From Candidatus Peribacteria bacterium (GTDB lineage: Bacteria; Patescibacteriota; Gracilibacteria; Peribacterales; Peribacteraceae), in contig JABICL010000034.1 in the NCBI GenBank assembly GCA_018652265.1, positions 31,236-95,235 on the forward strand: a stretch of DNA of 64,000 bases. Reading direction: 5' to 3'. The translations under genes and the position numbers were made by a program. The notes below the pieces were generated by a model, which was not told where the DNA came from, did not search any database, and was given only the letters and a program-made list of their open reading frames with translations. Shown piece after piece: positions 1 through 60,576 of the stretch; the stretch's first letter is position 1, and each line of letters starts with the position of its first letter.

Positions 1-496
1 CACTTGGGATCCATCTATAAATCCAACATCTCTTATGAGGTGGATAGAGAGCAATGGAATACAATTTGGTTATCCAAAGATAAAAAAGTATGAGCAGGAT
101 TTTATTCCAGAGGACATTCAACACTTTTTTACTTACACAAGTAACATCAGTCTTCCTGCCAAAGTTTTATATCAAAATAAATTCTTGGAAGATGTTTCTA
201 TGTATGGATGGGAAGATATGGAATGGGGACTTAGATTAAAAGAAGAGGAAATAGATTTATTTTATGAGCCAGGAGCAAAAGCTTATCATCATCACCCATT
301 TACAAATCGTGAAATATGGGAGAGATCTAGATTAATTGGTGCTTCTGCAAAAGAAATAGAAAAAATGGTTCCAGGCGCTTCGTTCACTCCAAAAGGATTT
401 AAGCTAATTGCATATTTCCTGAATGCACTTCTGCCAACTCGTATGGGAAAACATAGAAGGCAGTTTTTGAAGGGAATATTTAGTGTGTCATCCTGA
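1..496 (+). CDS. Glycosyltransferase family 2 protein, C-terminal part (5' truncated by window)
   Basis: Frame open from window start; motifs FFTYTSNISL, YGWEDMEWGLRL, AYHHH typical of GT2; stop TGA lies inside the palindromic repeat at 485. Confidence 0.8.
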   Translation, partial: TWDPSINPTSLMRWIESNGIQFGYPKIKKYEQDFIPEDIQHFFTYTSNISLPAKVLYQNKFLEDVSMYGWEDMEWGLRLKEEEIDLFYEPGAKAYHHHPFTNREIWERSRLIGASAKEIEKMVPGASFTPKGFKLIAYFLNALLPTRMGKHRRQFLKGIFSVSS

Positions 497-574
497 GGAG
501 TCCGCCCACAGGCGGACGTCTCGAAGGACATAACATGCTTCGAGATGTCGCTTCACTCCTCCTCAGCATGACAC
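485..574. repeat. Inverted pair of TGTCAT(C/G)CTGAG...TCGAAG(G/C)A palindromic elements (family B)
   Basis: GTGTCATCCTGAGGAGTCCGCCCACAGGCGGACGTCTCGAAGGAC (485-529, +) and GTGTCATGCTGAGGAGGAGTGAAGCGACATCTCGAAGCAT (574-535, -) between convergent genes. Confidence 0.85.
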
Positions 575-579
575 GCAAA

Positions 580-1347
580 TTAGGACACTTCAGACAACTC
601 CCTAATCTTGGTTTTAACATCCTCATCTCTAGGATCTAGCCTATTTATTTCGTTATAAGCAACTTGTGCTCCTTCTCTGTCTCCGAGTTGTAGGTGGCAC
701 TCTGCAAGAAGCCTCAAGAGTCCTATGTCTTTTGTAAGTGACTGAGATGCTTTTTTAAGTAGTGGGACAGCCTCTTCAAATCTTTTTGCTGCGATACATG
801 CTCTTCCAAGGTTATAGCTCCTATCTGGATTTTGCGGATCTAGATTGAGAGATTCTTGATAAGCGTGACATGAATCGGTGTATTTTTTTTGTTTATAGAA
901 TGTAAGGCCAAGATTTGAATATAATTCAGGGCTTTTATTGCCAGTTAGAAGCTCTGTGTATAAGGCTTCCGCCTTTGGTTCCATGCCTGTTTCTAGATAA
1001 ACCTTTGCAAGCTTGGTTTTTACCTCTCTATCTTCATGATTCACTGTTAGAGCTTTTATAAGCTCTTTTTCTGCTCCTTCATAATCTTGTTTTGCAAGTG
1101 AGCGATCCGCATCTCGAATAAGAGTTCTCACTTCTTGTAATTCAATAGCTCTAGCCCGTGGAGATTTGAAAGCTTTGTCGGTAGGTGTATCTGGGATTAG
1201 TTTTACATTTCTCTCTTCTGCATCCGAAAGCCCTTTTTTTACTGAGCGAACGACCCTTCTCACATTTCTACTTCGGAGTATTCCTCTGAACATAAAAACC
1301 AAGAATATTCCTGTTGCCGATACAATCATTACTGCGAGATAGACCAT
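580..1347 (-). CDS. Membrane-anchored tetratricopeptide repeat protein
   Basis: N-terminal hydrophobic helix (MVYLAVMIVSATGIFLVFMF) then TPR motifs (YSNLGLTFYKQKKY, YNLGRAC); start moved to the ATG right after the holB stop. Confidence 0.8.
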   Translation of the reverse strand: MVYLAVMIVSATGIFLVFMFRGILRSRNVRRVVRSVKKGLSDAEERNVKLIPDTPTDKAFKSPRARAIELQEVRTLIRDADRSLAKQDYEGAEKELIKALTVNHEDREVKTKLAKVYLETGMEPKAEALYTELLTGNKSPELYSNLGLTFYKQKKYTDSCHAYQESLNLDPQNPDRSYNLGRACIAAKRFEEAVPLLKKASQSLTKDIGLLRLLAECHLQLGDREGAQVAYNEINRLDPRDEDVKTKIRELSEVS

Positions 1348-1348
1348 T

Positions 1349-6336: not shown

Positions 6337-6378
6337 GTCGTTCATACGCTGCAAAGACTCCGCTCGCTCGCTACCCGA

Positions 6379-6474
6379 TGTCATGCTGAGCCACCCTGAG
6401 AGAGCGAGCACTTGAAGCAGAGCGACGAAGTCGCGATGCTTAAGTCTCGCGAGTCGAAGGGTGTGTCGAAGCAC
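6379..6474 (+). repeat. Nested family B palindromic element
   Basis: TGTCATGCTGAGCC[ACCCTGAG...GTCGAAGGGT]GTGTCGAAGCAC; close relative of 60488-60576. Confidence 0.85.
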
Positions 6475-6527
6475 TATTTTTCTTCTTTTAGTTATAAATC
6501 CTGCTACAAATTCGCTAGAATCAAATC

Positions 6528-8648: not shown

Positions 8649-8771
8649 GTCACACCTCCGTGCTGACAAGAAACGAACGATCGCTCAGCAACATCGCATG
8701 AGCGAGTAACTATTTTTAAATTACCATGTAAAGTTTATATAACAAGGGTTTTCTGTACATATTTTGGCTTG

Positions 8772-8927
8772 CCAGCCGAAGTCGCAGCGATTTTATGCTT
8801 CATAAAATGCATCCTGCAAAATATTACGGATGATAATCTACGCTGCGCGTAGGCTGGTGCCCAGGGAGAGACTCCCTTCGTCTCGCTCACTTCGTTCACT
8901 CGCTCAGGATAAACTTCTCGTCTCTCC
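8772..8927. repeat. Duplicated tRNA-Leu 3' end (8855-8874) flanked by two structured elements
   Basis: TGGTGCCCAGGGAGAGACTC identical to 8975-8994; family B unit ATCCTGAGCG...CGAAGG on - strand; CCAGCC-GAA...GTA-GGCTGG stem at 8772-8857. Confidence 0.75.
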
Positions 8928-8974: not shown

Positions 8975-9061
8975 TGGTGCCCAGGGAGAGACTCGAACTC
9001 TCACAGGATTGCTCCTACTAGCTCCTAAGGCTAGCGCGTCTACCAATTCCGCCACCTGGGC
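8975..9061 (-). tRNA. tRNA-Leu (anticodon TAG)
   Basis: GCCCAGGTGGCGGAATTGGTAGACGCG-CTAGC-CTTAGGA-GCTAG, long variable arm, GTTCGAGT, encoded CCA. Confidence 0.95.
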
Positions 9062-10143: not shown

Positions 10144-11100
10144 ATGAACAAAAAAGAACTCTTAAAAGAGCTTTCAGAAAAAGTTGCATCTGGATCTATA
10201 GATAAAAGCGAAGTTATGGATGCTATTTCCGGAGAGGGGATAAAAAAATCCATGTCTCATTTATCTATAATGACAATCCTATACTTCATAGGTGCAGTTG
10301 CAGTGATTATGGGAATTATCTTCTTTATAGCGCAAGTTTGGGAGGATATAGGATCATTTGTAAGAGTATCTATTACATTAGGCATGGGTCTTATAATGAC
10401 CATGCTTGGATCTATGCTTGTAAAAGAAAAAGAAAAGAAAAACATAGGTTTAGTTTTTCAGTTTATAGGAGGCCTACTTATTCCGGGGGGATCTATGGTA
10501 CTACTTTCTGAATTTAGTACTGGAGTTGTTCACATGTGGCCTATAGCAATAACTATTGGAATTATATTTTTGTTTTATTTGATATTGGATTTTGCACAAA
10601 AAAATCCCATTCTTACATTCTTTGCGATAGCAAACGGAACAGCTTTTATTTATCTCCTTATAGGAGCTCTTACAGAAGGGCAGGCTTCTTATAAATACGA
10701 TGATCTATATGCATATACAACTATGATAATAGGTGCATCGTATCTCGCACTTTCACATAATTTTAAGACAGGTTGGAATAGGAATTTGGTAGGAATTTTG
10801 CAACTTGTAGGATCTTTCGGCTTCTTTGTTGCTGCATTCTCTAGGGTAGAATATATTTTTGCAGGACAGATCCTCTACTTCTTCGTATTAGGCGCAGGGC
10901 TCTTCTTATCTATCTATATGAAAAGCAAAGCCATATTGCTTACCAGTACAGTATTTTTGATAGTCCATTTTGTTTATATAACAGACAGATACTTCGCAGA
11001 TTCTCTCGGTTGGCCTATTTCTCTGATTATTTTGGGACTTATAATAATCGCTCTAGGATACGGATCCGTGGAGGTTAATAAGAAATATTTGAAGAAATAG
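10144..11100 (+). CDS. Polytopic membrane protein (DUF2157-like)
   Basis: About 9 hydrophobic helices; ILYFIGA...GIIFFIAQVWEDIG pattern. Confidence 0.7.
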   Translation: MNKKELLKELSEKVASGSIDKSEVMDAISGEGIKKSMSHLSIMTILYFIGAVAVIMGIIFFIAQVWEDIGSFVRVSITLGMGLIMTMLGSMLVKEKEKKNIGLVFQFIGGLLIPGGSMVLLSEFSTGVVHMWPIAITIGIIFLFYLILDFAQKNPILTFFAIANGTAFIYLLIGALTEGQASYKYDDLYAYTTMIIGASYLALSHNFKTGWNRNLVGILQLVGSFGFFVAAFSRVEYIFAGQILYFFVLGAGLFLSIYMKSKAILLTSTVFLIVHFVYITDRYFADSLGWPISLIILGLIIIALGYGSVEVNKKYLKK

Positions 11101-11102
11101 TA

Positions 11103-11191
11103 TGTCATGCTGAGCCGTACTGAGCGAGTAGAACTGGAGGCAGAACGAAGTGAAGCCTCAGTTCTAGGAGACGAAGTACGTGTCGAAGCAT
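11103..11191 (+). repeat. Nested family B palindromic element
   Basis: TGTCATGCTGAGCC[GTACTGAG...CGAAGTAC]GTGTCGAAGCAT. Confidence 0.85.
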
Positions 11192-11289
11192 AGATATTTT
11201 GCTAGAGATTGGTTGTATAAGTTATAAATAAGTTGTACAAATATAGTTAGTCTCAGATTTCACGTTGTTCCTTACACAAGGGGATAGAA

Positions 11290-14323: not shown

Positions 14324-14395
14324 CGGCTTCGCGTTTAGGAATAGACCTATTCATTTGTCATATCACTTATTTTGACCAGCGATCCCGCTACGCCG
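14324..14395 (-). repeat. Stem closed by GTA/GAA internal loop (CGGC-GTA-GCG...CGC-GAA-GCCG)
   Basis: Same motif as 8772, 42224 and 58340. Confidence 0.5.
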
Positions 14396-14547
14396 CCATT
14401 ATTTCCGTTATTTTAATATGCCATTGGATGTGCTTTAATTGCAGGTTTTGATAAGAATTTGCCATTGTTTACCACCCAGAGATTCGCTACAGTAAGCCTA
14501 ACATCACCGCTTGCCCCGTAGTGCTGCAAAGCTACTTCTGGGGCCAA

Positions 14548-14649
14548 CTATCAAGAGAGACATAAAGGGAACTGGCCCGTCTGCATATGTCCCCCAACCG
14601 CCCCTAATACGGGAAAGGTGGGAAATCCAGCCCCTATACGGGAAGATAG
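14548..14649 (+). promoter_or_regulatory. SAM-I (S-box) riboswitch
   Basis: P1 CTATC/GATAG, ATCAAGAGA, GGGAACTGGCCC, CAACC...GGTG, AAATCC; directly upstream of metK. Confidence 0.85.
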
Positions 14650-19268: not shown

Positions 19269-19349
19269 TAATGAATAATTAAAAATGAATAATGAATAAT
19301 TATGGACTATTTCCTTTATTGTACATTTTTCATTGTACATTTTTCATTT
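19269..19349 (-). repeat. 81-bp cassette: 5 heptamers + 11-bp core + 5 inverted heptamers
   Basis: On - strand: aaatgaa aaatgta caatgaa aaatgta caataaa GGAAATAGTCC ataatta ttcatta ttcattt ttaatta ttcatta. Confidence 0.85.
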
Positions 19350-20545
19350 GTCGTCTTAATAACATTTATATATTGATTTACCATCCTCTCAACAGAAAAT
19401 CTTTCTCTAGCACTTTTTTCTCCATTTCTAGACAGTTTCTCCAAAACTTCTTCTTTCTGAATTTCTGTAATTGCAGCTTTAATTTTATTACTACTTCCTG
19501 CAGGAACAATAATTGAATCCTCCGAGGAGATATGCCTAGAGATTCCACATGCATCTGTACATATAGTAGGAATTCCTCGCATCATTGCTTCGGCAATCAC
19601 TAGTCCAAAAGGATCATTTTCTCTGCTTGGCAAAACCAGACAATCTATCCGATTATAAAATTCTTCTATATTGGGAATTGATTCCACAAGCTCAATTTTT
19701 TGCTGCCCACTTGTTTGTTTTTGTATATTGCAGCGAGAACAGGCTTTTATAAGCTTATTTCTCTCAGGTCCATTTCCAACTATCTCTAGCTCCACATTCG
19801 AAAGATCTTTTATGGCTTCTATAAGCAGATCTACTCCTTTGTCGTAAGTTAAGCGAGAAATACAGCCTATGCGGAAATTTCTAGCTTTCCTAGGGTGAAC
19901 ATTGTTGCTCTCCTCGACCGAGTCCGCCGAGGCGGACGAGTGGAGAGGCGCCTCTCGATTCAGCTCCTTGCTAGGAGCTTCACTCGAGGAAAGCCTTGTT
20001 TCCACTCCATTAGGAATAGAAATCACATCCTCCTCTCTCCACCCCATATCCAAATAAATATCTCTGCTCAGGTCAGATACCGTAACTGTAGTTGCTAGCC
20101 TGCTTAGTTTGCGAAGACGCGGAAGCCATGGATTCCACTTAAGCCATCTTCCTACTTTATCATGTTCGACCCAGATTACTTTTATGTTGTTTTGAATGCA
20201 CCACTCTGTGAGTAGAAGTTTTTCGCTTAGGCTCAACATGAAAACCGTGCTCAGTGTTCCGCGTTCCGCGTTCAGTGCTTCTATAAGCTTTTTCTTCATA
20301 CCTTTCTTCCGCCATAAGAAACTAATTGCATTCCACTTAGTAACTGGCGGGGGATCAATATTCAATTCTTTCATGCGGTCCGCGGTCCGCGGTCCGCGGA
20401 CCGCTCGTAATAGTGTTTTACAATCTCCCAAAAACTCAACTTCATAACCTCTCTCTCCCAGTCCTTTCATTAAACTCAGCGTCTGCACCTCCGCCCCGCC
20501 GAAACGAGATTCAAGTGGAAATCTGGTAAATAGGACTTTCTTCAC
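19316..20545 (-). CDS. Glycosyltransferase family 4 with three in-frame repeat insertions
   Basis: GGAEVQ, IPNGV, SRLTYDKG, DPFGLVIAEAM. Confidence 0.9.
   Translation of the reverse strand: MKKVLFTRFPLESRFGGAEVQTLSLMKGLGERGYEVEFLGDCKTLLRAVRGPRTADRMKELNIDPPPVTKWNAISFLWRKKGMKKKLIEALNAERGTLSTVFMLSLSEKLLLTEWCIQNNIKVIWVEHDKVGRWLKWNPWLPRLRKLSRLATTVTVSDLSRDIYLDMGWREEDVISIPNGVETRLSSSEAPSKELNREAPLHSSASADSVEESNNVHPRKARNFRIGCISRLTYDKGVDLLIEAIKDLSNVELEIVGNGPERNKLIKACSRCNIQKQTSGQQKIELVESIPNIEEFYNRIDCLVLPSRENDPFGLVIAEAMMRGIPTICTDACGISRHISSEDSIIVPAGSSNKIKAAITEIQKEEVLEKLSRNGEKSARERFSVERMVNQYINVIKTTNEKCTMKNVQ
19884..19994 (-). repeat. In-frame palindromic element (family A), 111 bp
   Basis: GCTTTCCT...AGGAAAGC termini; encodes LSSSEAPSKELNREAPLHSSASADSVEESNNVHPRKA. 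Confidence 0.9.
20247..20280. repeat. In-frame degenerate heptamer run
   Basis: gtgctca gtgttcc gcgttcc gcgttca gtgctt; peptide LNAERGTLS. Confidence 0.65.
20375..20404. repeat. In-frame heptamer run (GCGGTCC)n
   Basis: Encodes AVRGPRTADR; same unit as 38841-38870. Confidence 0.85.
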
Positions 20546-20619
20546 CGGTATAAATTAACATGTTATTAGATTGGGCGCGTGCTTCAAAAAGGGAATATGA
20601 AGAGCGCTTTGAGCAAGAA

Positions 20620-20722
20620 GTAGCATGCGCGTCCCGCGCATGAGGTCAAATGGGCGTCCTCGCCCACGTTTACCGCGGGCACGATGCCCGCATGACCTCA
20701 TCGCCGAGGACGGCGATGCTAC
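20620..20722. repeat. GTAG-type REP doublet with four hairpins
   Basis: GTAGCATGCGCG-TCC-CGCGCATG...CATCGCCG-AGGA-CGGCGATGCTAC; inner ATGAGGTCA/TGACCTCAT stem. Confidence 0.75.
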
Positions 20723-20728
20723 GCCGTC

Positions 20729-23386
20729 CTAGCCTCCGTGACACTTCTTATATTTCTTCCCACTACCGCACGGACAAGGATCATTTCTTCCTACTTTGGT
20801 TTTAGGCATACCAGGTGGTAATCCCTGAGAAGAAGGCCTCTTTCCGTTTCGCATAGCAGAACCTGCACCGGTTTCGTAAAGTTCATTTTCTATATCATCT
20901 ATATTCGTTTCCAGATCTTTTTGCTCTTCTTTTACTCTTTCCATCATCGCTCGTGGAGCGAATTGTTTGAAGTCTATTTGTAGCAGTGTGTGAACTATAG
21001 ATGATTCGATAGATACAATTAGCTGCGCAAATAATCTAAATCCTTTGTCTTTATATTCGATCAAAGGATCTTTTTGTGCATAACCAGAGAAGGCGACTTG
21101 CTCTCTAAGGTGAGACATAGTGTCTATATGATTCATCCAGTGGGTATCTATAGATCTAAGCGTAACTACTCTTTCTGCCTGTTCTACAAGTTCACTGTCA
21201 TACTCTTTGCATTTTTTCTCGTATGCATCTTTTGTGGCTTCACACAGTGATGTTTTTAATTCTTCTGTTGTTTGAAAACCTTTTACGCTGAATTCTCCAA
21301 GTGAGTGATGTAGTGCTCCAAGTCTCTTACTTATATCTTCTATCTCCCATTTTTCTGGATCTTTATCGGAAGCATGAGCAACAACTATTGCTCCTATTTC
21401 TTTTTCTATATATTCAACTATTTCACTATGTAAACTTTCTTCATTACTTTCATCGCTTTCTTTATAGGAGCTACTCATCTTATTCATAAGATCCTGTCTC
21501 CTCTTGTACATAATCTTTCTATGCTTATTCATTACATCGTCGTACTGCACAACGTGTTTTCTTACATCGAAGTTTCTCCCCTCCACTTTCTTTTGAGCAT
21601 TTCCTATAGCTCTCGATACCATTGAATTTTCAAGTGGAACATCATCAGGAACATTCATTCTTTCCATCATTGATTTCAATCTATCTCCACCAAATAGTCT
21701 CATTAGATCGTCTTCCATAGATACAAAAAATTGGCTTTCTCCAGCGTCTCCTTGCCTTCCTGCTCTTCCGCGAAGCTGATTATCTATACGACGAGCTTCG
21801 TGCCTTTCTGTTCCAAGTATTACAAGTCCTCCTAGTTCCAATACCTCTTCTGCGAGCTTTATATCAGTTCCACGTCCTGCCATATTTGTGGCTATGGTTA
21901 CTGCGCCTTTTTGTCCTGCCTGAGACACTATTTCTGCTTCACGTTCGTGGTGTTTTGCGTTTAAAACCTCATGTGGAATATTTTCTGCAGCAAGCAAAGC
22001 TCCCAATGCTTCAGATTTTTCTATAGAAGTTGTTCCTGCAAGAACTGGCTGACCTTTTTCGTGTTTTTCTTTTATGATTTTTGCAGCAGCTTTAAATTTC
22101 GCCTCTACAGTTCGATAAATTGCATCAGATTTATCATCACGTATTGTTGGTTTATTTGTTGGAATTACATATGTTCGTGTTCCATATATCTGTTCAAATT
22201 CTTCTTCTTCTGTTTTAGCAGTTCCTGTCATTCCAGATAACTTTTCGTACATACGGAAATAGTTCTGGAAAGTTATAGTTGCCAGAGTTTTACTCTCCCT
22301 TTGTACTTCTACCCTCTCCTTTGCCTCTATGGCCTGATGTAAGCCATGTCCATATCTACGTCCTGGCATCAGGCGACCGGTAAATTCATCTACAATTATT
22401 ATTTCTTGCTCCCTTACTACATAGTCCACATCTGATTTATATATTGCATGTGCTCTGAGAGCTTGCTCTATATGATGCACCTCTTCGAATCCTTTCTCTG
22501 TATATATATTTTCTATTCCAAGTAGTTCTTCCATATGCCTTATCCCTTCCTCTGTAAGAACTGCGAGCCTTTGTTTTTCATCTATTGTGTAATCTTTATT
22601 TGGTTTTAAATTACTTACGAGTCCAGAATACAAATTGTATTTATCGGTACTTTCTTCTGCTGGCTGGCTAATAATTAGGGGAGTACGGGCTTCGTCTATA
22701 AGGATTGAATCTACTTCATCTACTATGCAGAAATTTAAGCCCCTTTGAACCTGTAGATCTACAGATGGTGCCATGTTGTCTCTGAGATAATCGAATCCAA
22801 ATTCATTGTTAGTTCCATATGTCACATCAGAGTTATATGCAGCACGACGTTCTTCTGCAGATTTTTCATGTACAACTACATCAGTTGTTAGGCCTAGCAT
22901 TTCATATAATGGCCTCATCCACTCTTCATCACGCTTTGCAAGATAATCGTTCACGGTGACCACGTGTACACCTTTGCCTGTAAGTGCATTTAGGTACACA
23001 GGCATGGTACAAACCAAGGTTTTACCTTCACCAGTCTTCATTTCAGCTATTGAGCCTTTGTGCAAAATAATTCCACCAAGAATTTGAACATCAAATGGAA
23101 CCATATTCCATATTACTTGGGATTTTCCAACTTGGATTTCTGTACCACATAAAAGCTGACAAGCCCTAATTACTACTGCAAAAGCTTCTGGCATTACGCT
23201 ATCTAGAGATTCTCCCTCCTTTATTCTTGTGCAGAATTCTTCTGTTTTCTTCTTTATATCTTCTTCGGAGAAGTTCTGAGCCTCTTCGAATCTATTTTTT
23301 ACTTTAGCAACCAAAGGCGTAAGCTTCTTCAATTCTTTCTGAGCCGGGTCACCAAGTAGGCGATTTAGAGCATCTACAAACGACAT
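20729..23386 (-). CDS. secA: Preprotein translocase subunit SecA
   Basis: EMKTGEGKT, DEVDSILIDEARTPLIIS, TNMAGRGTDI, GRNDPCPCGSGKKYKKCHG. Confidence 0.98.
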   Translation of the reverse strand: MSFVDALNRLLGDPAQKELKKLTPLVAKVKNRFEEAQNFSEEDIKKKTEEFCTRIKEGESLDSVMPEAFAVVIRACQLLCGTEIQVGKSQVIWNMVPFDVQILGGIILHKGSIAEMKTGEGKTLVCTMPVYLNALTGKGVHVVTVNDYLAKRDEEWMRPLYEMLGLTTDVVVHEKSAEERRAAYNSDVTYGTNNEFGFDYLRDNMAPSVDLQVQRGLNFCIVDEVDSILIDEARTPLIISQPAEESTDKYNLYSGLVSNLKPNKDYTIDEKQRLAVLTEEGIRHMEELLGIENIYTEKGFEEVHHIEQALRAHAIYKSDVDYVVREQEIIIVDEFTGRLMPGRRYGHGLHQAIEAKERVEVQRESKTLATITFQNYFRMYEKLSGMTGTAKTEEEEFEQIYGTRTYVIPTNKPTIRDDKSDAIYRTVEAKFKAAAKIIKEKHEKGQPVLAGTTSIEKSEALGALLAAENIPHEVLNAKHHEREAEIVSQAGQKGAVTIATNMAGRGTDIKLAEEVLELGGLVILGTERHEARRIDNQLRGRAGRQGDAGESQFFVSMEDDLMRLFGGDRLKSMMERMNVPDDVPLENSMVSRAIGNAQKKVEGRNFDVRKHVVQYDDVMNKHRKIMYKRRQDLMNKMSSSYKESDESNEESLHSEIVEYIEKEIGAIVVAHASDKDPEKWEIEDISKRLGALHHSLGEFSVKGFQTTEELKTSLCEATKDAYEKKCKEYDSELVEQAERVVTLRSIDTHWMNHIDTMSHLREQVAFSGYAQKDPLIEYKDKGFRLFAQLIVSIESSIVHTLLQIDFKQFAPRAMMERVKEEQKDLETNIDDIENELYETGAGSAMRNGKRPSSQGLPPGMPKTKVGRNDPCPCGSGKKYKKCHGG

Positions 23387-26212: not shown

Positions 26213-26255
26213 GAAGAGGAATTGTATGTGTAAATTAAAACACAGGAAAGAAAAA

Positions 26256-26400
26256 TAAGTACTTTAGGTACTTTATGTACATTAGGTAATTTAGGTACAT
26301 ATTTAATACGAGAAATTAAATCCTACCTAAGATACCTAAGATACCTAAGATACCTAAGATACCTAAGATACCTAAGATACCTAAGATACCTAAGATACCT
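26256..26400. repeat. Inverted nonamer-arm cassette with perfect (TACCTAAGA)x8 array
   Basis: Five degenerate TAGGTACTT units, palindromic core ATTTAAT-N7-ATTAAAT, then 8 perfect TACCTAAGA units. Confidence 0.9.
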
Positions 26401-26415
26401 TATACTACCCCTCGT

Positions 26416-31882: not shown

Positions 31883-31893
31883 ATACTTTCTCT

Positions 31894-32835: not shown

Positions 32836-32842
32836 CGACGAG

Positions 32843-32923
32843 AAATGAACAATGAATAATTAACAATGAATAATAAAGGAAATCTTCCATAATTGTTAAT
32901 TGTACATTGTTCATTGTTAATTA
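32843..32923 (+). repeat. 81-bp 5x7/core/5x7 cassette
   Basis: aaatgaa caatgaa taattaa caatgaa taataaa GGAAATCTTCC ataattg ttaattg tacattg ttcattg ttaatta. Confidence 0.85.
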
Positions 32924-32976
32924 GCATGTTCCACTAATGAACACTCAATGAGTTGTTTTGCTGTAATATATCAATC

Positions 32977-34965: not shown

Positions 34966-35015
34966 AGTGTCGACATTATAACACTCCGCTCGCGTGCTTA
35001 AGGTGGTATTTCGCT

Positions 35016-35122
35016 TAGGTGGGAGCCAAGTCGCTCTCCTCGAGTGAGTTGTGCTGCCTCTCGACGTCCGCCTGTGGCGGACGCTCGAGGAAAGCACAAC
35101 GAATCGAGAGGTGTCGAAGCAT
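35016..35122 (+). repeat. Intergenic compound A-in-B element (5'-truncated relative of 42210)
   Basis: TAGGTGGGAGCC-AAGTC-GCTCTCCTCGAGTGAGTTGTGCTGCCTCTCGA...GAATCGAGAG-GTGTCGAAGCAT. Confidence 0.85.
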
Positions 35123-42061: not shown

Positions 42062-42209
42062 ATCTCCGCTCGCATGCTGAATGTTACATATTGAGCCGAA
42101 ATTTCGCAGGGCTATATTTCTAAATCTTTACATTGTATTTGCAAATCTAAAGTGATCTCTGCTGACAAATTTCTTACTCAATATGCAACCTGCATGCTTG
42201 CTACTAATA

Positions 42210-42386
42210 TGTCATGCTGCCTGCCCGCCGAAGTCCGCCGCGGCGGACGTAGGCGGGAGCCAAATAGCTTTCCTCGAGTGAGTTGTGCTGCCTCTCGACT
42301 TTCGCCTGCGGCGAAAGCTTCCTCCTTCGCTAAAGCTACGGACGACAGGCGAGGAAAGCACAACGAATCGAGAGGTGTCGAAGCAT
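42210..42386 (+). repeat. Multiply nested compound palindromic element
   Basis: Family B ends split by a CCTG-hairpin (42220-42257); contains a family A element that is itself interrupted by a second CCTG-hairpin (42320-42349). Confidence 0.9.
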
Positions 42387-45147: not shown

Positions 45148-46268
45148 GGATTTGTTCCATAGTTTCTGCTCGGCCAAATTTTGTGAAGCTCGCAGGCGTG
45201 GTGCATGCATTCAAGTGTCATGCTGAGGAGGAGCGAAGCGACGTCTCGAAGCATAAACACTTCATAATCCACACAGGCCAACACTCAGATCCTTTGTTTT
45301 CTGACATCTTCTTCAAGGAACTTGATATTCCAGATCCAGATTATAATTTGGGCGTAAAGAGTGCAGGAAATAATGAAGAAACTATCAAAGCAACTTCCGA
45401 AGCTTGCGTCGATGCTCTGAAAGATGCAAATCCTGATGTTGTTTTGGTTTACGGAGATGTATCTGGAGCACTTGGTGGCGCACTTGCTGCAAAAGAAATT
45501 GGAATTCCAGTTGCTCACGTCGAAGCAGGGCTTCGGTCAGGTGATATGGATATGCCAGAAGAAAGAAATAGAATAGAAATAGATAAAATTGCTAAATATT
45601 TATTTGTTACTGAAGAATCAGGACGAAAGAATTTAGAAAAAGAGGGGATAGAGGGAGAGGTTCATTTTGTGGGCAATACGATGATAGATACTTTGATTCG
45701 GATGCAGAAAAATGTGTTTGATTTCAAAAGACCATTTGATTATCCAGATAAATTTGGATTGGTAACTTTGCATCGTCCAAGTAATGTTGATTCAAAAGAT
45801 AATCTGAAGAAAAACATAGATTTTCTAAACGAAGTTGCAGAAAAAAAAGAATTGATATTCCCAATCCACTTAAGAACCAAGTCTGCACTAGAAAATTATA
45901 ATCTATATTCAAAATTATCTGACAAAATAATAAAAAAAGACCCGCTAGGGTACATAGATTTTCTAAAATTAATACATTTATCAGATTTTGTACTTACAGA
46001 TTCGGGAGGCATTCAAGAAGAAACCACTTTTTTGGGAGTTGAATGTTTTACTCTTAGGAAAAACACTGAGCGCCCAGCTACAGAGAGTAAAAATGGTGGG
46101 ACAAATCATTTGATAGATATAGATAAAAAGGAGGGCAAGGATTTAGTACTAGAATTTGCTGAGGAAAATATAAATTACAACGAAAGATCTATGAGACTAA
46201 TGGATGGGAAAGGCCCTGAAAACTGGGACGGAAAAGCGGGAGAAAAAATCATAAAAATTCTAACTTAA
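45144..46268 (+). CDS. wecB: UDP-N-acetylglucosamine 2-epimerase (non-hydrolysing; WbpI-like)
   Basis: ARPNFVK, HTGQH, HVEAGLRS, MPEERNR, TDSGGIQEE, TERP. Confidence 0.9.
   Translation: MRICSIVSARPNFVKLAGVVHAFKCHAEEERSDVSKHKHFIIHTGQHSDPLFSDIFFKELDIPDPDYNLGVKSAGNNEETIKATSEACVDALKDANPDVVLVYGDVSGALGGALAAKEIGIPVAHVEAGLRSGDMDMPEERNRIEIDKIAKYLFVTEESGRKNLEKEGIEGEVHFVGNTMIDTLIRMQKNVFDFKRPFDYPDKFGLVTLHRPSNVDSKDNLKKNIDFLNEVAEKKELIFPIHLRTKSALENYNLYSKLSDKIIKKDPLGYIDFLKLIHLSDFVLTDSGGIQEETTFLGVECFTLRKNTERPATESKNGGTNHLIDIDKKEGKDLVLEFAEENINYNERSMRLMDGKGPENWDGKAGEKIIKILT
45215..45254 (+). repeat. In-frame family B element
   Basis: GTGTCATGCTGAGGAGGAGCGAAGCGACGTCTCGAAGCAT encodes CHAEEERSDVSKH; 2 mismatches to the intergenic copy 574-535. 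Confidence 0.92.
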
Positions 46269-50184: not shown

Positions 50185-51435
50185 TCAAGTTTGAAAAAAC
50201 TTTAAATAATTTTCTATCTGTTTTTCTAGAGAAAACTTTTCTTCAATGAGTTTTCTGCCTGCCTTTCCCATTTCTATTGCTCTATTTCGATCAGAAAGTA
50301 GGTAGTCTAATTTTTTTGCAAATGTTTTAGTATCAAATGGATCTACGATAAATCCGGTTTGCTCATCTAGAATCAATTCTTTCGATCCTCCATAGTGAGT
50401 TGCAATTACTGGCTTTCCAAGTGCCATAGCTTCTAGATTTACAGTAGGAAAAGAGTCAAAGCATATAGATGGGGTAACACATATGTCACAATTAGATATT
50501 GCTTCTATGAATTCTTTTCTCCTGAGCTTTCCTGTGAATTTTATTTTGTCTACCAAATCTTCTGAATGTCTATATTTATTTGTAAGAGCTTCTGCTTTTG
50601 ATTTATCTCCTGCAATTACAATTGATGCCTCTGGATGAGAGCTTTTGATGAGTCTAAAAGCATCAAGTAGCTGATATAAGCCTTTGTCTCGGTTCATTCG
50701 ACCTCCGAAGAAGATAGTTTGTTTATCTGAGGCTTTCCTCGAGTGAGGCTCTTCGCAAAGAGCTGAATCGAGAGGCGCCTCTCCACTCGTCCGCCTGAGG
50801 ACGGACTCGGTCGAGGAGGGCAGATCTATGCCATTGTAAATTACATCATCAATTTCTATGCCATTTGCTTCCAATGCATCTTTTAGCGCATGGCTTACTG
50901 CTATTTTTACATCTACTTTCTTAAGAATGCGTTTTATAAAGAAGTTTCTTAGTGGATTCCAAAGTATTCCAGCTTGTTTTATGTGATCTATGAAACTTAG
51001 TTTGTAATTGAAGTTTTTTAGATATTTATCCGTTGCAAGTCTTCCATAAGAAAAGCTCATTACGTCATGAAATGTGATTACAACTTTTTTTGCATGCTTC
51101 TTTGCAATTTTCAGTGAATTATATGTAAGAAGCTGATGCACATTATGTGCATGGACAATGTCATATGATCCATTTTCCTTGAAAAACTTTTTTATAAGCT
51201 TAGAAGCTTTAGGATTCCAAATACTTAAGTAAGCTCTCCATCTCGAATCATAAGATATTGGTATATATGAGATTTTGTATGGACTACTAATCGCTAATCG
51301 CTTACCGCTAATCGCTGTCAAAACATCTACCTCATGTCCCTGCTCAACATACCCTTCAGCAAGTTGAGATGCTATTTGCCCTGCTCCTCCATCACAATTT
51401 GGAGGGAAATCATCATTTAGAATTAAAATTTTCAT
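50185..51435 (-). CDS. Glycosyltransferase family 4 with two in-frame insertions
   Basis: GGAG, HAHN, IYNGID, GGRMNRDKG, DSFPTVNLEAM. Confidence 0.9.
   Translation of the reverse strand: MKILILNDDFPPNCDGGAGQIASQLAEGYVEQGHEVDVLTAISGKRLAISSPYKISYIPISYDSRWRAYLSIWNPKASKLIKKFFKENGSYDIVHAHNVHQLLTYNSLKIAKKHAKKVVITFHDVMSFSYGRLATDKYLKNFNYKLSFIDHIKQAGILWNPLRNFFIKRILKKVDVKIAVSHALKDALEANGIEIDDVIYNGIDLPSSTESVLRRTSGEAPLDSALCEEPHSRKASDKQTIFFGGRMNRDKGLYQLLDAFRLIKSSHPEASIVIAGDKSKAEALTNKYRHSEDLVDKIKFTGKLRRKEFIEAISNCDICVTPSICFDSFPTVNLEAMALGKPVIATHYGGSKELILDEQTGFIVDPFDTKTFAKKLDYLLSDRNRAIEMGKAGRKLIEEKFSLEKQIENYLKFFQT
50732..50821 (+). repeat. In-frame family A element, opposite orientation relative to the host gene compared with the other GT4 copies
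   Basis: GCTTTCCTCGAGTGAGGCTCTTCGCAAAGAGCTGAATCGAGAGGCGCCTCTCCACTCGTCCG...GGTCGAGGAGGGC; read as PSSTESVLRRTSGEAPLDSALCEEPHSRKA. Confidence 0.9.
51287..51316. repeat. In-frame (CTAATCG)n run
   Basis: ctaatcg ctaatcg cttaccg ctaatcg; encodes AISGKRLAIS. Confidence 0.8.
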
Positions 51436-56427: not shown

Positions 56428-58332
56428 ATGACAAATAATGATACGTACATACTTGGCCTCTCCTGTTATTACCATGATAGTGGTGTTGTACTACTTAAAA
56501 ATGGAGTAATAGTTGCAGCTGCTCAAGAAGAGAGGTTTACCAGAAAAAAACATGATGATGGATTTCCATCCGAAGCAATTTATTATTGCTTAGAAGAGGC
56601 TGGAATTTCAAAAGCTGAACTTAACTATGTGATTTTTTATGATAAGCCCCTTTCGAAGTTTGAAAGGATTTTGATGACTACTATAGATGCTTGGCCAAGG
56701 GGATATAGGCAAATGCTTCAGTCTCTATCACTTTGGCTTAGTAAGAAGCTATGGATGAAACAGCAAATTGCGAAAGAATTAGATTTTGATGGAGAAATAT
56801 TATTCTCGGAGCATCATATGTCTCATGCAGCCTCTACATTCTTTAGTTCAGCATTTTCCGATTCTGCAGTTGTAACTCTAGATGGAGTAGGAGAGTGGGA
56901 AACTACTGGAATAGGATATGGTTCTACTTCGCAAGCTATGCAGAATGCCTCGAATTTATGTTTAACACATGTTATTCATTTCCCTCATTCTCTAGGACTT
57001 TTGTATTCAGCGGTTACTGGATATCTGGGATTCAAGGTAAATAGTGCAGAGTACAAAGTAATGGGACTAGCTCCATATGGAGTAGTAGATGGGAACCCAG
57101 AGAAGTATATGCCAGCTATGCGTAAGCTTATAGATATAAAAGAAGATGGAAGCTATAAGCTGAATATGAAATATTTTGCATATGAATATGGTCTAAGGAT
57201 GACAAATAGACATTTTCATAAGCTTTTTGGGGGTCCACCTAGAAAAGCAGAGTCAGATCTTGAGCAAAAGCACAAAGATATAGCGGCAGCATTACAAATG
57301 ATTACAGAAGAAGCTGTTATGAAGATAGTTCGATATGCTTACAAGCTGCATCCAAGTGAAAATCTATGTCTTTCCGGAGGAGTCGCACTAAATTGTGTAG
57401 CTAATGGAAAAGTTCTCCGAGAAGGACCATTCAAAAATATATTTATACAACCAGCTTCTGGGGATGCAGGCGGAGCACTAGGTGCTGTTCAGTATCTTTG
57501 GCATGCAGTACTGGGTAATCCGAAGACGCAGGAGACTTGTATGAAGAATGTTTACTTTGGACCGGAGTTTGAAGATCAAGAGATTGAAAAGTATTTACTA
57601 CAGTATTCTAGGCAAACAAGCTTTCCTCGAGCGAGTTGTGCTGCCTCTCGACATTCGCCTTCGGCGAATGCTCGAGGAAAGCACAACGAGTTGAGAGGCA
57701 ATGAACTTAAATGGAGAAAATTTGGTAGCAATGAGGAATTAACCGAGGAAGTTTCCTCTCTAATAGATGGAGAAAATGTAATTGGATGGTTCCAAGGTCG
57801 AATGGAATTTGGTCCACGGGCACTTGGCAATAGATCGATAATTGCAGATGCAAGGAGAAAGGAAAATTGGCAGAAAGTGAATCTAAAAATTAAGTTCAGA
57901 GAATCTTTTAGACCTTTTGCACCTTCTGTTCTAGAAGAGCGTGCGTCTGATTGGTTTGAATTAGATGTTCCAAGTCCTTATATGTTACTTGTCGCAGATG
58001 TAAAAGAAGAGAAGCGTGCAGAAATACCTGCGATAACACATGTAGATGGATCTGCTCGAATACAAACTGTAAATAGAGAAGAGAATTCTGTTTACTATGA
58101 CCTCATAAAGAAATTCTACGAGAAGACAGGATGTCCTGTAGTTATAAATACGTCGTTTAATGTTCGTGGAGAGCCTATAGTCTGTTCTCCTAAGGATGCA
58201 TTGTATTGCTTCTTAAATACAGAGATGGATTATTTGGTTATGGGATCTTATGTTCTTGCGAAGAAAGACAATGTGCATCTAATAGATTCTTCTCTTAGAG
58301 ATAAGTATCTTGATGCATTCGATCTAGATTAG
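56428..58332 (+). CDS. Carbamoyltransferase (NodU/CmcH/SxtI family) with two in-frame insertions
   Basis: YYHDS, AAAQEERF, EHHMSHAAS, EYKVMGLAPYG, GRMEFGPRALGNRS, RESFRPFAP, NTSFN. Confidence 0.95.
   Translation: MTNNDTYILGLSCYYHDSGVVLLKNGVIVAAAQEERFTRKKHDDGFPSEAIYYCLEEAGISKAELNYVIFYDKPLSKFERILMTTIDAWPRGYRQMLQSLSLWLSKKLWMKQQIAKELDFDGEILFSEHHMSHAASTFFSSAFSDSAVVTLDGVGEWETTGIGYGSTSQAMQNASNLCLTHVIHFPHSLGLLYSAVTGYLGFKVNSAEYKVMGLAPYGVVDGNPEKYMPAMRKLIDIKEDGSYKLNMKYFAYEYGLRMTNRHFHKLFGGPPRKAESDLEQKHKDIAAALQMITEEAVMKIVRYAYKLHPSENLCLSGGVALNCVANGKVLREGPFKNIFIQPASGDAGGALGAVQYLWHAVLGNPKTQETCMKNVYFGPEFEDQEIEKYLLQYSRQTSFPRASCAASRHSPSANARGKHNELRGNELKWRKFGSNEELTEEVSSLIDGENVIGWFQGRMEFGPRALGNRSIIADARRKENWQKVNLKIKFRESFRPFAPSVLEERASDWFELDVPSPYMLLVADVKEEKRAEIPAITHVDGSARIQTVNREENSVYYDLIKKFYEKTGCPVVINTSFNVRGEPIVCSPKDALYCFLNTEMDYLVMGSYVLAKKDNVHLIDSSLRDKYLDAFDLD
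56922..56945 (-). repeat. In-frame 24-bp GTA/GAA-type mini hairpin
   Basis: - strand TTCTGC-ATA-GCTTGC-GAA-GTAGAA; resembles 42320-42349. Confidence 0.5.
57620..57699 (+). repeat. In-frame family A (nested subtype) element
   Basis: Closely similar to intergenic copies at 35033 and 42267; encodes SFPRASCAASRHSPSANARGKHNELRG. Confidence 0.92.
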
Positions 58333-58339
58333 TGAAATC

Positions 58340-58437: not shown

Positions 58438-60246
58438 ATGATTATGAGCTTGTGTGACAACTGGAAAAAATTCATTTATTCATTCTATTCGAATTATAAA
58501 AGATTTTTTATAGAAAATAAGTTGATTGCGACTCTAATTAGTCTTGCAGCTTTTAAGGGGGTGTTTGATTTGGGTAGATTAATTTATTTTTACATAATTC
58601 ATAAGCCAATAAACTGGGATACTCTAATTTATCTCACAATTGGTCGTGGGATTCTAAACGGAATAAAGCCTTATTCAGGATTGTATGAAATGAAGCCGCC
58701 AGGTATTTTTTTGATTTCTGCACTAAGTTTGCGTGTAACAGGAAATGAAACTTTTGGGATTTATATGCAAATTGCGTTTCAGGTATTAATACCACTTCTT
58801 ATTTCTTGGGCAGCTTGGAAAATTACTATAAAAAAACCTTCATCATTTCGTATTTTTTCTGTGATGTCTGGAATGGTATTTGGACTGATTGTTTCTCTGT
58901 ATGCAGAATCACGACACATAGCATTTCAATCTGAAGGATTTGGATTCTTCTTTGCTTTACTATACGTAATTTCAATTGCATTTATAGGAAGAATGACAAT
59001 TCTACGCACAGTTATAGCATCTGTTGGAATTCTTGGATGTATAGGTATGAAAGAGCCATTTTTTCTATCAGTGATTGCGGTTGCATTGATTTTGCAAGAT
59101 GAAGATGAATCTTTTTTTAAGAACATTCTTTATAGATTAGTATTTCCATTTTTAATAGCTGCCGTATCGGGGATTATTATTATGGCTTTACTGGGATATT
59201 TAGATGGATATTTAGGAATTCATCTTCCTTTCATTTTTGAATCACGTGTATCAAATGGATTGCCATTACCACTTCGGGGTCTTTCTATTGGTTATGTGCT
59301 TATGGATTTATTTATTACACCAATGTTCCTTTTTGGATTGCCGGTTGGATTATTCATCCTTATTACACTTGTAGGATCCAAAATCCCAGTGACATATATT
59401 AAACGGCTTATTGTTTCTTTTTTTGGATGCATTATTTTTTCTACAGTTCTTTGGTTTGTTATTAGAAATCATCAATTAGTGGGACGTCTGGAATGGAACA
59501 ATATAAATATTGTGTATATGACACTAAGAAAAATTTTATTAGTAGGAGAAGCATGGACAGCTTGGAAAATCATTCTTGTGGGACTATTGATATTAGCTTC
59601 GATTAAGTCATTTCTTGCTATACCAAGAAAACATTTCACGCAAACATTGATAATAATTTTTGCTCTTTATCTAGTATCACTTGCAGCTGCAGCTGGAAAT
59701 TTTTTTGGATCTCATATGATTTTTGCATTGCCGCTCTATTGTGCATTCTTTTTTATGTTTTTGCATAGAATTAATAAATATACAAATCCGCGATTTTTAC
59801 AAAACATCTGTGCAATATTATTGTTTATGGCTGCTATTTTTACATATCAAAAAAATCATCAATATATTTTGCAGCAAGAAATTCAATATAATGAAAAATC
59901 AAATACAGAATTAACCGAAGCATTTGATAGCATCATGGAGAGCTGTGATATAAAAAGATATTTTATTGTGGGTGATGGAGCATTTTTAACATCACACTCA
60001 AAATATTCGCCGATTGGGCCTATACCATTTCATTTACCATTTATGAGTGACTCGCACTCTCTTCTTGTAGATTACTACAAAAGAGGATTGGCATATGCTC
60101 AATTTGCTATTTTAATGCCTGAAGGTCGTAATATTCATGTTCTTGCAAAACTCTTGGAAGAAAGCAATTTTACAAGATCTATTCCTAAGTGTGCAAAACC
60201 TAATAGATTGCCAGAGAATTATGTATTATATTTCCGTGATTTGTAA
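58438..60246 (+). CDS. Polytopic membrane protein, GT-C-like
   Basis: WDTLIY...PYSGLYEMKPPGIF loop motif; many TM helices; start uncertain. Confidence 0.65.
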   Translation: MIMSLCDNWKKFIYSFYSNYKRFFIENKLIATLISLAAFKGVFDLGRLIYFYIIHKPINWDTLIYLTIGRGILNGIKPYSGLYEMKPPGIFLISALSLRVTGNETFGIYMQIAFQVLIPLLISWAAWKITIKKPSSFRIFSVMSGMVFGLIVSLYAESRHIAFQSEGFGFFFALLYVISIAFIGRMTILRTVIASVGILGCIGMKEPFFLSVIAVALILQDEDESFFKNILYRLVFPFLIAAVSGIIIMALLGYLDGYLGIHLPFIFESRVSNGLPLPLRGLSIGYVLMDLFITPMFLFGLPVGLFILITLVGSKIPVTYIKRLIVSFFGCIIFSTVLWFVIRNHQLVGRLEWNNINIVYMTLRKILLVGEAWTAWKIILVGLLILASIKSFLAIPRKHFTQTLIIIFALYLVSLAAAAGNFFGSHMIFALPLYCAFFFMFLHRINKYTNPRFLQNICAILLFMAAIFTYQKNHQYILQQEIQYNEKSNTELTEAFDSIMESCDIKRYFIVGDGAFLTSHSKYSPIGPIPFHLPFMSDSHSLLVDYYKRGLAYAQFAILMPEGRNIHVLAKLLEESNFTRSIPKCAKPNRLPENYVLYFRDL

Positions 60247-60310
60247 TCCTATTTTTGATATTAGATATTTGTTTTATTCCAATGATTGATTCTGATACAG
60301 TTCATGACAT

Positions 60311-60478
60311 ATGAAAAAACACAGCAAACTTTCAATCTTTAGCGATATATGGGCGTTTCTATGCGTTAGGAAAAAATGGTGGCTGGCACCTATTCTTATA
60401 GTTCTAGTACTGTTTGGATTCTTGCTTGTATTTGCAGAGACATCTGCGCTTGCACCGTTTATTTATACATTGTTTTAA
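60311..60478 (+). CDS. DUF5989/SxtK-family small protein (not in ORF track)
   Basis: MKKHSKLSIFSDIWAFLCVRKKWWLAPILIVLVLFGFLLVFAETSALAPFIYTLF. Confidence 0.9.
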   Translation: MKKHSKLSIFSDIWAFLCVRKKWWLAPILIVLVLFGFLLVFAETSALAPFIYTLF

Positions 60479-60487
60479 AATAAATAA

Positions 60488-60576
60488 TGTCATGCTGAGC
60501 CATTCTGAGAGAGTGAGCACTTGAAGCGGAGCTTGCGACGCTTAAGTCTCACGAGACGAAGAATGTGTCGAAGCAC
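60488..60576 (+). repeat. Nested family B element overlapping the GT2 C-terminus
   Basis: TGTCATGCTGAGCC[ATTCTGAG...CGAAGAAT]GTGTCGAAGCAC. Confidence 0.88.

Follow-up and report, generated by a model that had tools for sequence, protein, structure and literature searches.

The window analyzed here is a 64,000-nt stretch of the genome of a marine member of the Peribacteraceae, in the candidate phyla radiation (CPR), and our subject is the small structured repeats that it contains, several of them in frame inside genes. It occupies positions 31236-95235 of contig C30, and makes up 6.0% of an assembly of 1,069,784 bp in 48 contigs (38% GC). The aspartyl-tRNA synthetase (AspRS) is 65% identical to that of a Candidatus Peribacteraceae metagenome-assembled genome (MAG); the next matches are in Peribacterales/Peregrinibacteria. 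Several studies of marine and seawater metagenomes contain near-identical DNA. An earlier note had drawn a gene map from the sequence alone, and Pfam analysis of 49 open reading frames (ORFs) agrees with it. One part of the map has holB, the S6 gene, a class-A penicillin-binding protein (PBP) gene, aspS, metK, an amidase/SpoIID gene, secA and uvrB. The other is a glycan cluster that spans about 32 kb and contains nine GT4 and four GT2 glycosyltransferase genes, rmlA, epimerase genes, a DegT gene, wecB, a flippase gene and a carbamoyltransferase gene. The map had placed no transposase here, correctly: Pfam found no transposase, integrase or nuclease family among the 49 ORFs, including seven of the hitless ones, which were rescanned at E ≤ 0.01.

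The earlier count of about 30 structured elements of several families is borne out. BLAST of the window against its own genome gave 29 repeated intervals, a stricter self-BLAST catalogue of the genome gave 25, and inspection by eye added five structured pieces (479-574, 8765-8904, 20599-20751, 29361-29390 and 45215-45254). The elements may be divided into three kinds. F1 is a GC-rich palindrome of 85-95 nt. Its terminal stem of 11-12 bp reads GCTYTCCTCGA / TCGAGGARAGC, and inside it are a central hairpin that is constant (GAGAGG-loop-CCTCTC) and two side hairpins that vary. In copies from 20 loci in unrelated genes, 37 of 89 aligned positions are invariant, and three pairs of the consensus fold in the side hairpin hpB show compensatory double changes (in 4, 9 and 5 of the 20 sequences). 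The second kind is built from tandem arrays. In array stem-loops (families F4, F5, F6, F7, F9 and F13) both arms are arrays of about 30 nt made of 7-, 8- or 9-nt units; solitary heptamer arrays (F11 and others) have about 4.3 units in about 30 nt. The third kind comprises the intergenic palindromes F0b (about 90 nt) and F0a (about 105-140 nt). All elements of the window have predicted folds far below the level of random sequence; those of the palindromic repeat are at -42 to -68 kcal/mol.

Nine copies in the window are truly in frame inside genes, all of them in glycan genes: four F1 copies, four heptamer arrays and a 40-nt F0b-like mini-element. Eleven or twelve had been claimed before, all in sugar enzymes. 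In the GT4 gene 19316-20545(-), F1 (19901-19994, minus strand) encodes amino acids 183-213 between the N- and C-terminal Rossmann domains, and a (GCGGTCC)x4.3 array lies at 20374-20406. The GT4 gene 30609-31808 carries F1 on the plus strand at 31176-31264 (amino acids 189-219), in a predicted disordered inter-domain loop. In the GT4 gene 50185-51435(-), F1 (50732-50823, plus strand; amino acids 205-235) again lies between two domains, and a (CTAATCG)x4.3 array is found at 51287-51316. The fourth copy, a short F1 (57617-57702, plus strand), encodes amino acids 397-419 of the carbamoyltransferase, between Carbam_trans_N and Carbam_trans_C. The two other arrays are (GATCGCG)x4.1 at 34504-34532 in rmlA and (GCGGACC)x4.3 at 38839-38872 in the GT4 gene 38402-39454. 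The mini-element GTGTCATGCTGAGG...CGAAGCAT (45215-45254, plus strand) is read through in wecB as CHAEEERSDVSKH. An F0a fragment with a short F1 copy at 34977-35115, formerly taken to be in frame in rmlA, was rejected as an ORF-extension artefact. The gene probably starts at 34965, with the Met of MKGILICGGSGTRL, and both pieces lie upstream of that position, in the spacer between the divergent rmlA and rmlB; the Pfam match starts at residue 46 of the long ORF.

Other elements overlap the 3' ends of genes. AT-rich F5 stem-loops with heptamer-array arms hold the stop codons of GT4 19316 (19269-19349) and GT4 30609 (31802-31885). F6 heptamer-array stem-loops hold those of an unknown 961-aa ORF, 26416-29301 (29297-29390; units AGTGATT / CTAACCA), and of a DUF2304 gene, 30138-30515 (30508-30603). 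An F0b palindrome (60486-60578, plus strand) holds the stop of the GT2 gene 60542-61252(-). The stop of ORF 2-496 lies in a GC-rich palindrome at 479-574, with termini GTGTCATCCTGAGG / CCTCAGCATGACAC, a fold of -47 kcal/mol and one other match in the genome; it forms a GC island. A borderline case is the F0b palindrome at 11100-11192 (plus strand), which abuts the stop of a DUF2157 gene (10144-11100). This gives five to seven cases, where the earlier note had six; not all of the genes are glycan-related, although it had described them so. No catalogued element lies within the PBP gene, aspS, metK, secA, uvrB or holB of the window, as the earlier note had said. For the window by itself, the earlier observation is largely correct.

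Host genes across the genome

Self-BLAST of the genome gave 457 repeat intervals covering 41,013 nt, or 3.8% of its length. With 25 of these intervals (5.5%) on 6.0% of the genome's length, the window is not raised in element density. Families F2 and F8 were set aside as coding, Cys-rich repeats. Profile searches found 59 F1 loci, of which 29 are inside ORFs, 26 intergenic and 4 at gene edges. The 29 in-ORF copies are distributed over 28 genes, and the host ORF continues unbroken through each of them. Among the hosts, F1 occurs in each of the three phases and in either orientation; one such reading is ELSSSES..REA..PL..LEES. The same searches placed none of the 38 F0b and none of the 53 F0a loci inside ORFs. 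Tandem Repeats Finder (TRF) detected 179 period-7 arrays genome-wide. Inside ORFs it found 46 arrays, each of at least 3.3 copies, in 39 genes. These in-gene arrays are solitary in 41 of 46 cases; of 63 arrays outside coding sequences (CDSs), 35 are paired with an inverted one no more than 160 nt away, against 7 of 63 in the control.

The hosts outside the window are of many kinds. Pfam identified no glycosyltransferase among the 23 F1 hosts there. They include DnaK (at its N-terminal edge), 6PGD, transketolase, an SDF symporter, LeuRS, a thioredoxin-reductase-like enzyme, two Mur ligases, CarA, IleRS, a metallophosphoesterase, GatA, a PyrK-like protein, ComEC, two FemAB proteins, TsaE, UvrD, KsgA, POR and an amidohydrolase. 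By the same method, arrays are found in PriA, TyrRS, PrmC, PurH, MurB, CarA, CarB, TIM, malic enzyme, RecG, an IscS-like enzyme, DHPS and IleRS, and also in GT4s, WecG, PMT_2, MraY/WecA, PGM and NTP-transferases. After removal of strain-duplicate genes and of nine events near ORF ends, 62 in-CDS events in 49 genes remained, and 37 of the 49 host genes are not glycan-related. Aminoacyl-tRNA synthetases, TIM, CarA/B, Mur ligases, UvrD, RecG, PriA and KsgA are among them, which contradicts the earlier proposal that housekeeping CDSs are spared. The earlier note had named an even spread of in-frame copies over functional classes as the result that would speak against it. Genome-wide, in-frame copies are in large part spread in this way, and a moderate glycan excess remains.

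Our glycan set contains 47 genes and 5.5% of coding residues. Some of its families were added because they were hosts. Pfam was run on the hosts and on a length-weighted random sample of 95 genes, the latter to correct for this. Glycan genes hold 15 of the 62 events, where 3.4 are expected, and GT4 genes hold 7, where 1.0 is expected. The density of in-CDS events is 8.7 per 10,000 amino acids in glycan genes vs 1.6. Glycan-related genes make up 12 of the 49 hosts, compared with 5 (strict) to 8 (broad) of the 95 sampled genes (Fisher p 0.001-0.01). In the window, all eight counted events fall in glycan genes, which are 48% of its coding length (3.8 expected, p 0.003). Outside it, glycan families including those seeded by hosts have 7 of 54 events, with 1.5 expected. 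The excess is about 3-5 fold; it is moderate, fragile and mostly from this window. The glycan-only pattern fails as a genome-wide rule and survives in this weaker form. Of the claim that elements concentrate in surface-glycan loci, what holds is that in-CDS events are denser in glycan genes; it does not extend to the elements overall.

Insertion sites and their variation

On average 4.04 of the six frames of F1 are open, compared with 2.47 in shuffled sequences, 1.26 in F0b and 1.22 in F0a. F0a and F0b have stops in nearly all frames and are therefore seen only between genes or supplying stops. In all three F1-bearing GT4s of the window and in the carbamoyltransferase, the insert lies exactly between two Pfam domains. 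In CarA, IleRS, transketolase and FemAB its position, judged by eye, is a domain boundary or next to one; elsewhere, again by eye, the domain envelope exceeds the profile by about the length of the insert. An AlphaFold model of GT4 30609, made from 33 sequences, has a mean predicted local distance difference test score (pLDDT) of 88. Its sole segment below 50, residues 196-224, overlaps the F1 insert and its 3' flank. The location in linkers, with predicted disorder in this model, points to tolerance of the inserts and not to a change of specificity. The distribution fits a filter by purifying selection, and targeting is not required. Targeting or relaxed selection had been offered before as alternatives. 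Nothing points to the former; open frames and loop or linker positions can explain the pattern, and the glycan excess is probably due to tolerance.

Orthologue comparisons, which the earlier note had proposed, show that the segments are insertions absent from other genera. Orthologues in other genera lack the insert of GT4 30609 (9/9), of the carbamoyltransferase (4/4) and of KsgA (10/10), and the F1 piece of CarA (7/7). Exact copies of the F1 termini number 21 in this genome and are present in 0/30 relatives; the F1 family is therefore young and lineage-specific. The linker of GT4 30609 carries other inserts in orthologues from other Peribacteraceae (proteins P0059, P0030, P0005 and P0006; alignment columns about 225-270). 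These are 7-residue tandem repeats (SPITNHQ, KVESGKL) or F1-like peptides (FSSSEAPTRSGGE...). Repeats of the SPITNHQ type are what one would expect if a heptamer array is read in all three frames. In these alignments, the GT4 inter-domain linker is a recurrent insertion site. A search of 5.8 billion proteins returned no relative of GT4 30609 closer than 65% besides itself, and therefore no species-level empty F1 allele was found.

Arrays can be compared between strains because the assembly mixes two strain variants. Six contig pairs are 89-97% identical over 0.4-2.3 kb (C6/C7, C19/C45, C2/C41, C14/C20, C10/C37 and C35/C47). The (GCGGACC) array in CarA is a presence/absence polymorphism: it is present in contig C14 and absent from the 93%-identical copy in C20. 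Three orthologous sites carry an array in either variant, with flanks about 95% alike; period 7 and position are kept, and the units differ (the pairs observed are AGCGATC vs CAATGAA, CCACTRM vs CTACTCA, and GCGGACC vs ACTRACC). Sites of this kind are C14 8846-8878 vs C20 12129-12160, C19 702-733 vs C45 703-735, and C14 1026-1044 vs C20 1029-1052. We know of no mechanism that would explain such a concerted change of units. The window arrays at about 20375, 34504 and 38841 recur unchanged in the contigs of independent runs (the second in run X3 and the third in X6), as far as contigs, which drop rare variants, can show.

Elements that carry a gene

The earlier note had suggested that small genes might be flanked by the same repeats. 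This holds for PF05635 genes (23S-rRNA-IVS / four-helix-bundle), which lie between arrays, and for one GIY-YIG gene inside F1. It does not hold for a REP-associated tyrosine transposase (RAYT), where REP denotes repetitive extragenic palindromes: PF01797 has 0 matches in the assembly, which is 100% complete by markers, and was matched in 6/14 control genomes.

PF05635 has nine matches in the genome. Tandem 7-10-nt arrays adjoin each copy examined, on one side or on both, and they form inverted pairs wherever both flanks are comparable. The arms belong to the BLAST families F4, F6, F7 and F9, as do the arms of hairpins that carry no ORF. Under a strict criterion (an inverted repeat of at least 28 bits, the same period in both arms and an autocorrelation of at least 0.5), such arms are present at four of seven PF05635 genes vs 0/372 other genes of 240-700 nt in this genome. 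In relatives, about 23 of 26 PF05635 loci, judged by eye and unscored by the criterion, have such arms, each with its own unit. A wider sample of 66 loci covers Acidobacteriota, Bacteroidota, Nitrospirota, Omnitrophota, Planctomycetota, Elusimicrobiota, Chloroflexota, Pseudomonadota, CPR and others; it was found with the two closest PF05635 proteins as query and is biased towards their close relatives. A flanking inverted repeat of at least 28 bits is present at 45 of the 66 loci, and 44 satisfy the full criterion, with an arm period of 7 in 39 and of 8 in 5. Mirror repeats, used as a control, reach 28 bits at 2/66 loci. The association of PF05635 with arrays thus appears to be general across bacteria. 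No paper stating it was found in the open-access literature.

Two published observations concern PF05635 genes. The available text of a large clustering study (PMC10910872) lists '23S rRNA IVP' among novel CRISPR-associated genes; one might speculate that flanking tandem arrays explain this association. In addition, a PF05635 gene is placed inside a Riemerella capsule locus in the accessible part of PMC13688083.

A split-half search with F1, F0a and F0b profiles found exactly one ORF-bearing element in the genome, at C38 44935-45307, and none of F0a or F0b. Positions 1-46 and 47-89 of the F1 model are separated there by 285 nt in the central loop, and the ORF inside encodes an 86-aa GIY-YIG domain (Pfam E 3e-18). 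The genome contains seven small GIY-YIG genes, of which this is the only one inside F1. Apart from this ORF, the genes flanked on both sides by F1, F0a or F0b proved to be ordinary genes. The GIY-YIG genes at C48 11026-11274, C43 28039-28293 and C44 17100-17420 adjoin tRNA genes and GC-rich family-3 repeats. In the window, a GC-rich family-3 repeat (8765-8904) lies beside the tRNA-Leu gene (8975-9061), with no GIY-YIG gene next to it.

Explanations, known systems and remaining features

We consider it probable that the repeats of the window are a sample of a population of small structured repeats present throughout the genome and shaped by insertion and purifying selection, much like Rickettsia palindromic elements (RPEs), and not by glycan targeting. 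Copies would arise throughout the genome. Those in genes would persist when the frame is open and the site lies in a loop or inter-domain linker, and would then be translated as 10-30 extra residues. Glycan enzymes, above all GT4s with the inter-domain linker of their GT-B fold, may tolerate inserts better or be less constrained, which would give the 3-5-fold excess. Both in-gene classes also occur in an ORF-bearing form, in which the same stem has a gene in its loop: PF05635 between array arms and GIY-YIG in F1. The existence of such counterparts for both main classes makes the earlier idea of trans-mobilised non-autonomous elements plausible, although mobility and action in trans are themselves inferred. 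The PF05635 and GIY-YIG proteins would be the best candidates for partners acting in trans on the ORF-less miniatures.

More tentatively, PF05635 genes could be the cargo of a widespread and hitherto undescribed class of stem-loop elements with locus-specific array arms of 7-9-nt units. ORF-less hairpins, in-frame 30-nt solo arrays in housekeeping genes and perhaps the puzzling heptamer repeats dispersed in genomes of other phyla (cyanobacterial STRR, Xanthomonas GGGAATC pairs) might then be miniatures or footprints of this class, and F1 the miniature of a GIY-YIG element. Selfish hairpins might in this way have a second means, in addition to RPEs, of supplying core proteins with extra peptides. 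This possibility is the less likely of the two readings offered here.

Several results weigh against these readings. The elements are probably mobile, but no act of transposition was seen. Inspection by eye of the flanks of 37 full F1 copies gave no consistent target-site duplication. The assembly has 0 matches to PF01797 (Y1), PF00665 (rve), PF07282 (TnpB) and PF00078 (RT), although its repeat-rich parts may be unassembled. An autonomous transposase-coding parent with F1 ends was not found in it either; the only ORF-bearing F1 encodes GIY-YIG. Logan contigs of four runs (X3, X5, X6 and X7), which break at repeats, contain no empty/filled pair of F1 alleles. We know of no nuclease or recombinase activity of PF05635. 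Because the six other GIY-YIG genes lie outside F1 and a convincing flanking inverted repeat is found at only 1-2 of 22 small GIY-YIG genes in relatives, the GIY-YIG link comes down to one locus. The homology of long F1 central loops to the inside of the GIY-YIG-bearing copy is no better than that of shuffles. For the glycan excess, families fixed in advance show none outside the window (2/54 events vs 1.2 expected, p 0.34), and the excess partly depends on the window and on families added as hosts. The gene models, 966 in all, are our own ORF calls, and the nine edge events were dropped because some of the called starts are wrong. The extra residues, finally, are predicted from intact frames.

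Some of these points would be expected if the repeats are immobile and arise in situ by slippage and fold-back synthesis, kept as terminators or RNA-processing stems and made alike by convergence and gene conversion. The absence of a transposase and of target-site duplications agrees with such an origin, as do the many stem-loops positioned at the 3' termini of genes (a stop codon is overlapped by 26 of the 179 period-7 arrays) and the different units at orthologous sites of 93%-identical variants (AGCGATC vs CAATGAA), which suggest local turnover. Slippage has also been proposed for heptamer over-representation, in the consulted text of PMC4692102. However, 37 invariant positions of 89 in F1 over 20 loci are not expected from independent origins, copies lie in coding loops where a terminator would harm, and orthologues lack the inserts. 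We therefore hold this origin to be unlikely. Still lower is our estimate for elements aimed at, or retained in, surface-glycan loci, where they would diversify or reshuffle glycan enzymes, with housekeeping genes protected. The eight of eight window events, the seven GT4 events and the other inserts in the GT4 linker of other Peribacteraceae favor it. Against it stand the 37 non-glycan hosts, which include essential genes and contradict its exclusive form, the average share of repeat intervals in the window, the lack of an excess outside it for pre-fixed families, and the linker positions, disordered in the model, that suggest tolerance rather than altered specificity.

The in-gene heptamer arrays could also be contingency loci, in which slipped-strand changes of copy number cause phase variation. 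Tandem 7-nt units in glycosyltransferase genes resemble known phase-variable loci, and a change by one unit shifts the frame. In the intergenic F4 stem-loop between uvrB and ORF 26416 (26255-26413), the arms are the 9-mer arrays GTACTTTAG x4.4 and TACCTAAGA x8.6, the latter at 26324-26400, and from these unequal arms arrays can expand. In genes, however, array length is near uniform, at about 4.3 units or 30 nt, and the frame is kept. Arrays are found in IleRS, TyrRS, TIM, CarA/B, PriA and RecG, where switching off would be lethal. Those at 20375, 34504 and 38841 do not differ between contigs from separate runs, and what distinguishes strain variants is the sequence of the unit or the presence of the whole array, not the copy number. 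Phase variation is thus very unlikely as their explanation. An artefact of assembly or binning, by collapsed repeats or chimeric joins in the MAG, has next to no probability. It might be suspected from the 48 contigs, the strain-variant pairs (89-97% identical) and contig ends in sequence resembling an insertion sequence (IS), but contigs of independent runs, from other samples and other studies, show 0 differences from the window over arrays and gene bodies, and no in-gene copy interrupts its host ORF.

Several known systems resemble these elements in part. RPEs are palindromes of about 100 nt with tens of copies, about half of them in frame in unrelated metabolic and housekeeping genes, where they add a peptide and leave the protein unbroken, and absent from orthologues, as summarized in the available part of PMC10969869 (citing Ogata 2000, 2002). 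F1 is similar in that it lies in frame in unrelated, intact ORFs, where it would add a peptide, and orthologues lack the segment. The likeness is one of behavior, and the sequences are presumably unrelated. Unlike RPEs, F1 is found in a CPR bacterium from a free marine population, it is read in several frames and both orientations instead of as one conserved peptide, and it has a GIY-YIG-bearing copy. We thus observe an RPE-like phenomenon in a CPR genome, with two element classes that each have an ORF-bearing form.

Intervening sequences (IVSs) of 23S rRNA have a stem of terminal inverted repeats, with the S23p/PF05635 ORF in the loop in some and no ORF in others; they are cut by RNase III, and a mobile origin is suspected, according to the consulted portion of PMC4990558. 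The elements here share the ORF in the loop of an inverted-repeat stem and the ORF-less versions. They differ in position, since the PF05635 cassettes examined lie between protein genes and not in helix 25/45 of rRNA, and in structure, since their stems are made of locus-specific tandem units of 7-9 nt and single arms occur inside CDSs. Dispersed heptamers (cyanobacterial STRR, Xanthomonas GGGAATC and Nostoc GGGGAYT) have at least about 4 units, often near gene ends, and are of unexplained function; in Xanthomonas, 70-75 convergent inverted pairs are able to form stem-loops (accessible text of PMC4692102). Here there are many units per genome, frequent in-frame copies and a link to PF05635. 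That link is unmentioned in PMC4692102, where '23S', 'intervening' and 'S23' have 0 occurrences.

REP elements, bacterial interspersed mosaic elements and miniature inverted-repeat transposable elements, or MITEs, are short, abundant, structured non-autonomous repeats, mostly intergenic and presumed to be mobilised in trans. In contrast to the REP/RAYT system, no Y1 transposase was found here, and the proteins proposed as partners are a GIY-YIG nuclease and one with a four-helix bundle. F1 resembles IS-derived MITEs in its 11-12-bp terminal inverted repeats, but no parent IS with matching ends was found and no target-site duplication was seen by eye. Free-standing GIY-YIG homing endonucleases are likewise small GIY-YIG ORFs in selfish DNA, with seven copies here and up to 15 matches in a relative. 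The proteins here differ in having a catalytic domain only (79-122 aa), with no recognizable DNA-binding domain, and only one of the seven is in F1.

To our knowledge, in-frame selfish palindromes in core proteins have hitherto been regarded as a peculiarity of Rickettsia. A free-living marine CPR bacterium does likewise at similar scale with different elements: 49 genes of its 1-Mb genome hold the 62 counted events. Two loose ends, the role of the PF05635/IVS ORF and the origin of dispersed heptamers, gain a testable anatomy. The results also advise caution in reading function from one window, as the glycan-only pattern came from a window of which glycan genes make up half. The accessible sections of the paper on complete Peribacteria genomes (PMC4736985) mention no such elements.

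Transposase-like sequence occurs elsewhere in the assembly. The ends of contigs C9, C11, C26 and C34 and positions 1-260 of C30, 31 kb upstream of the window, have a common sequence that encodes the C-terminal part of a transposase, which we take from its peptide to be IS30-like. The body of this IS is unassembled, and its ends differ from those of F1. Joints in the Logan contigs of the four runs connect different copies of one family, and no joint skips exactly one element.

The remaining elements of the window are between genes or at a 5' end. An F0b palindrome, ATGTCATGCTGAG...GTGTCGAAGCA, lies between the PBP gene and aspS (6378-6479, plus strand). A GC-rich multi-hairpin block (20599-20751) separates GT4 19316 from secA and merely touches the natural secA stop. 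An AT-rich F5 heptamer-array stem-loop (32841-32925) is intergenic, 6 nt after an epimerase gene. The composite intergenic block at 42065-42386 has F0b-type termini around a GC hairpin and a disrupted F1 copy. An F0a palindrome of about 115 nt, from the family with 53 loci genome-wide, lies at the 5' end of a Crp-like gene (63059-63183, plus strand; gene 62281-63114(-)).

Rfam at the gathering threshold matched only the tRNA-Leu gene in the window. Just upstream of metK, at 14504-14635, is a GC-rich and apparently structured stretch of 130 nt that has no Rfam match at this threshold; beside it, 14380-14403 is a 24-nt match to F12, a repeat family of about 120 nt with nine copies. The source of repeat families F2 and F8 is a group of large Cys-rich repeat proteins (C15 9840-16637, C35, C37 and C2/C41). 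These resemble the C-rich extracellular proteins of Ca. Peribacter riflensis, as described in the available part of PMC4736985.

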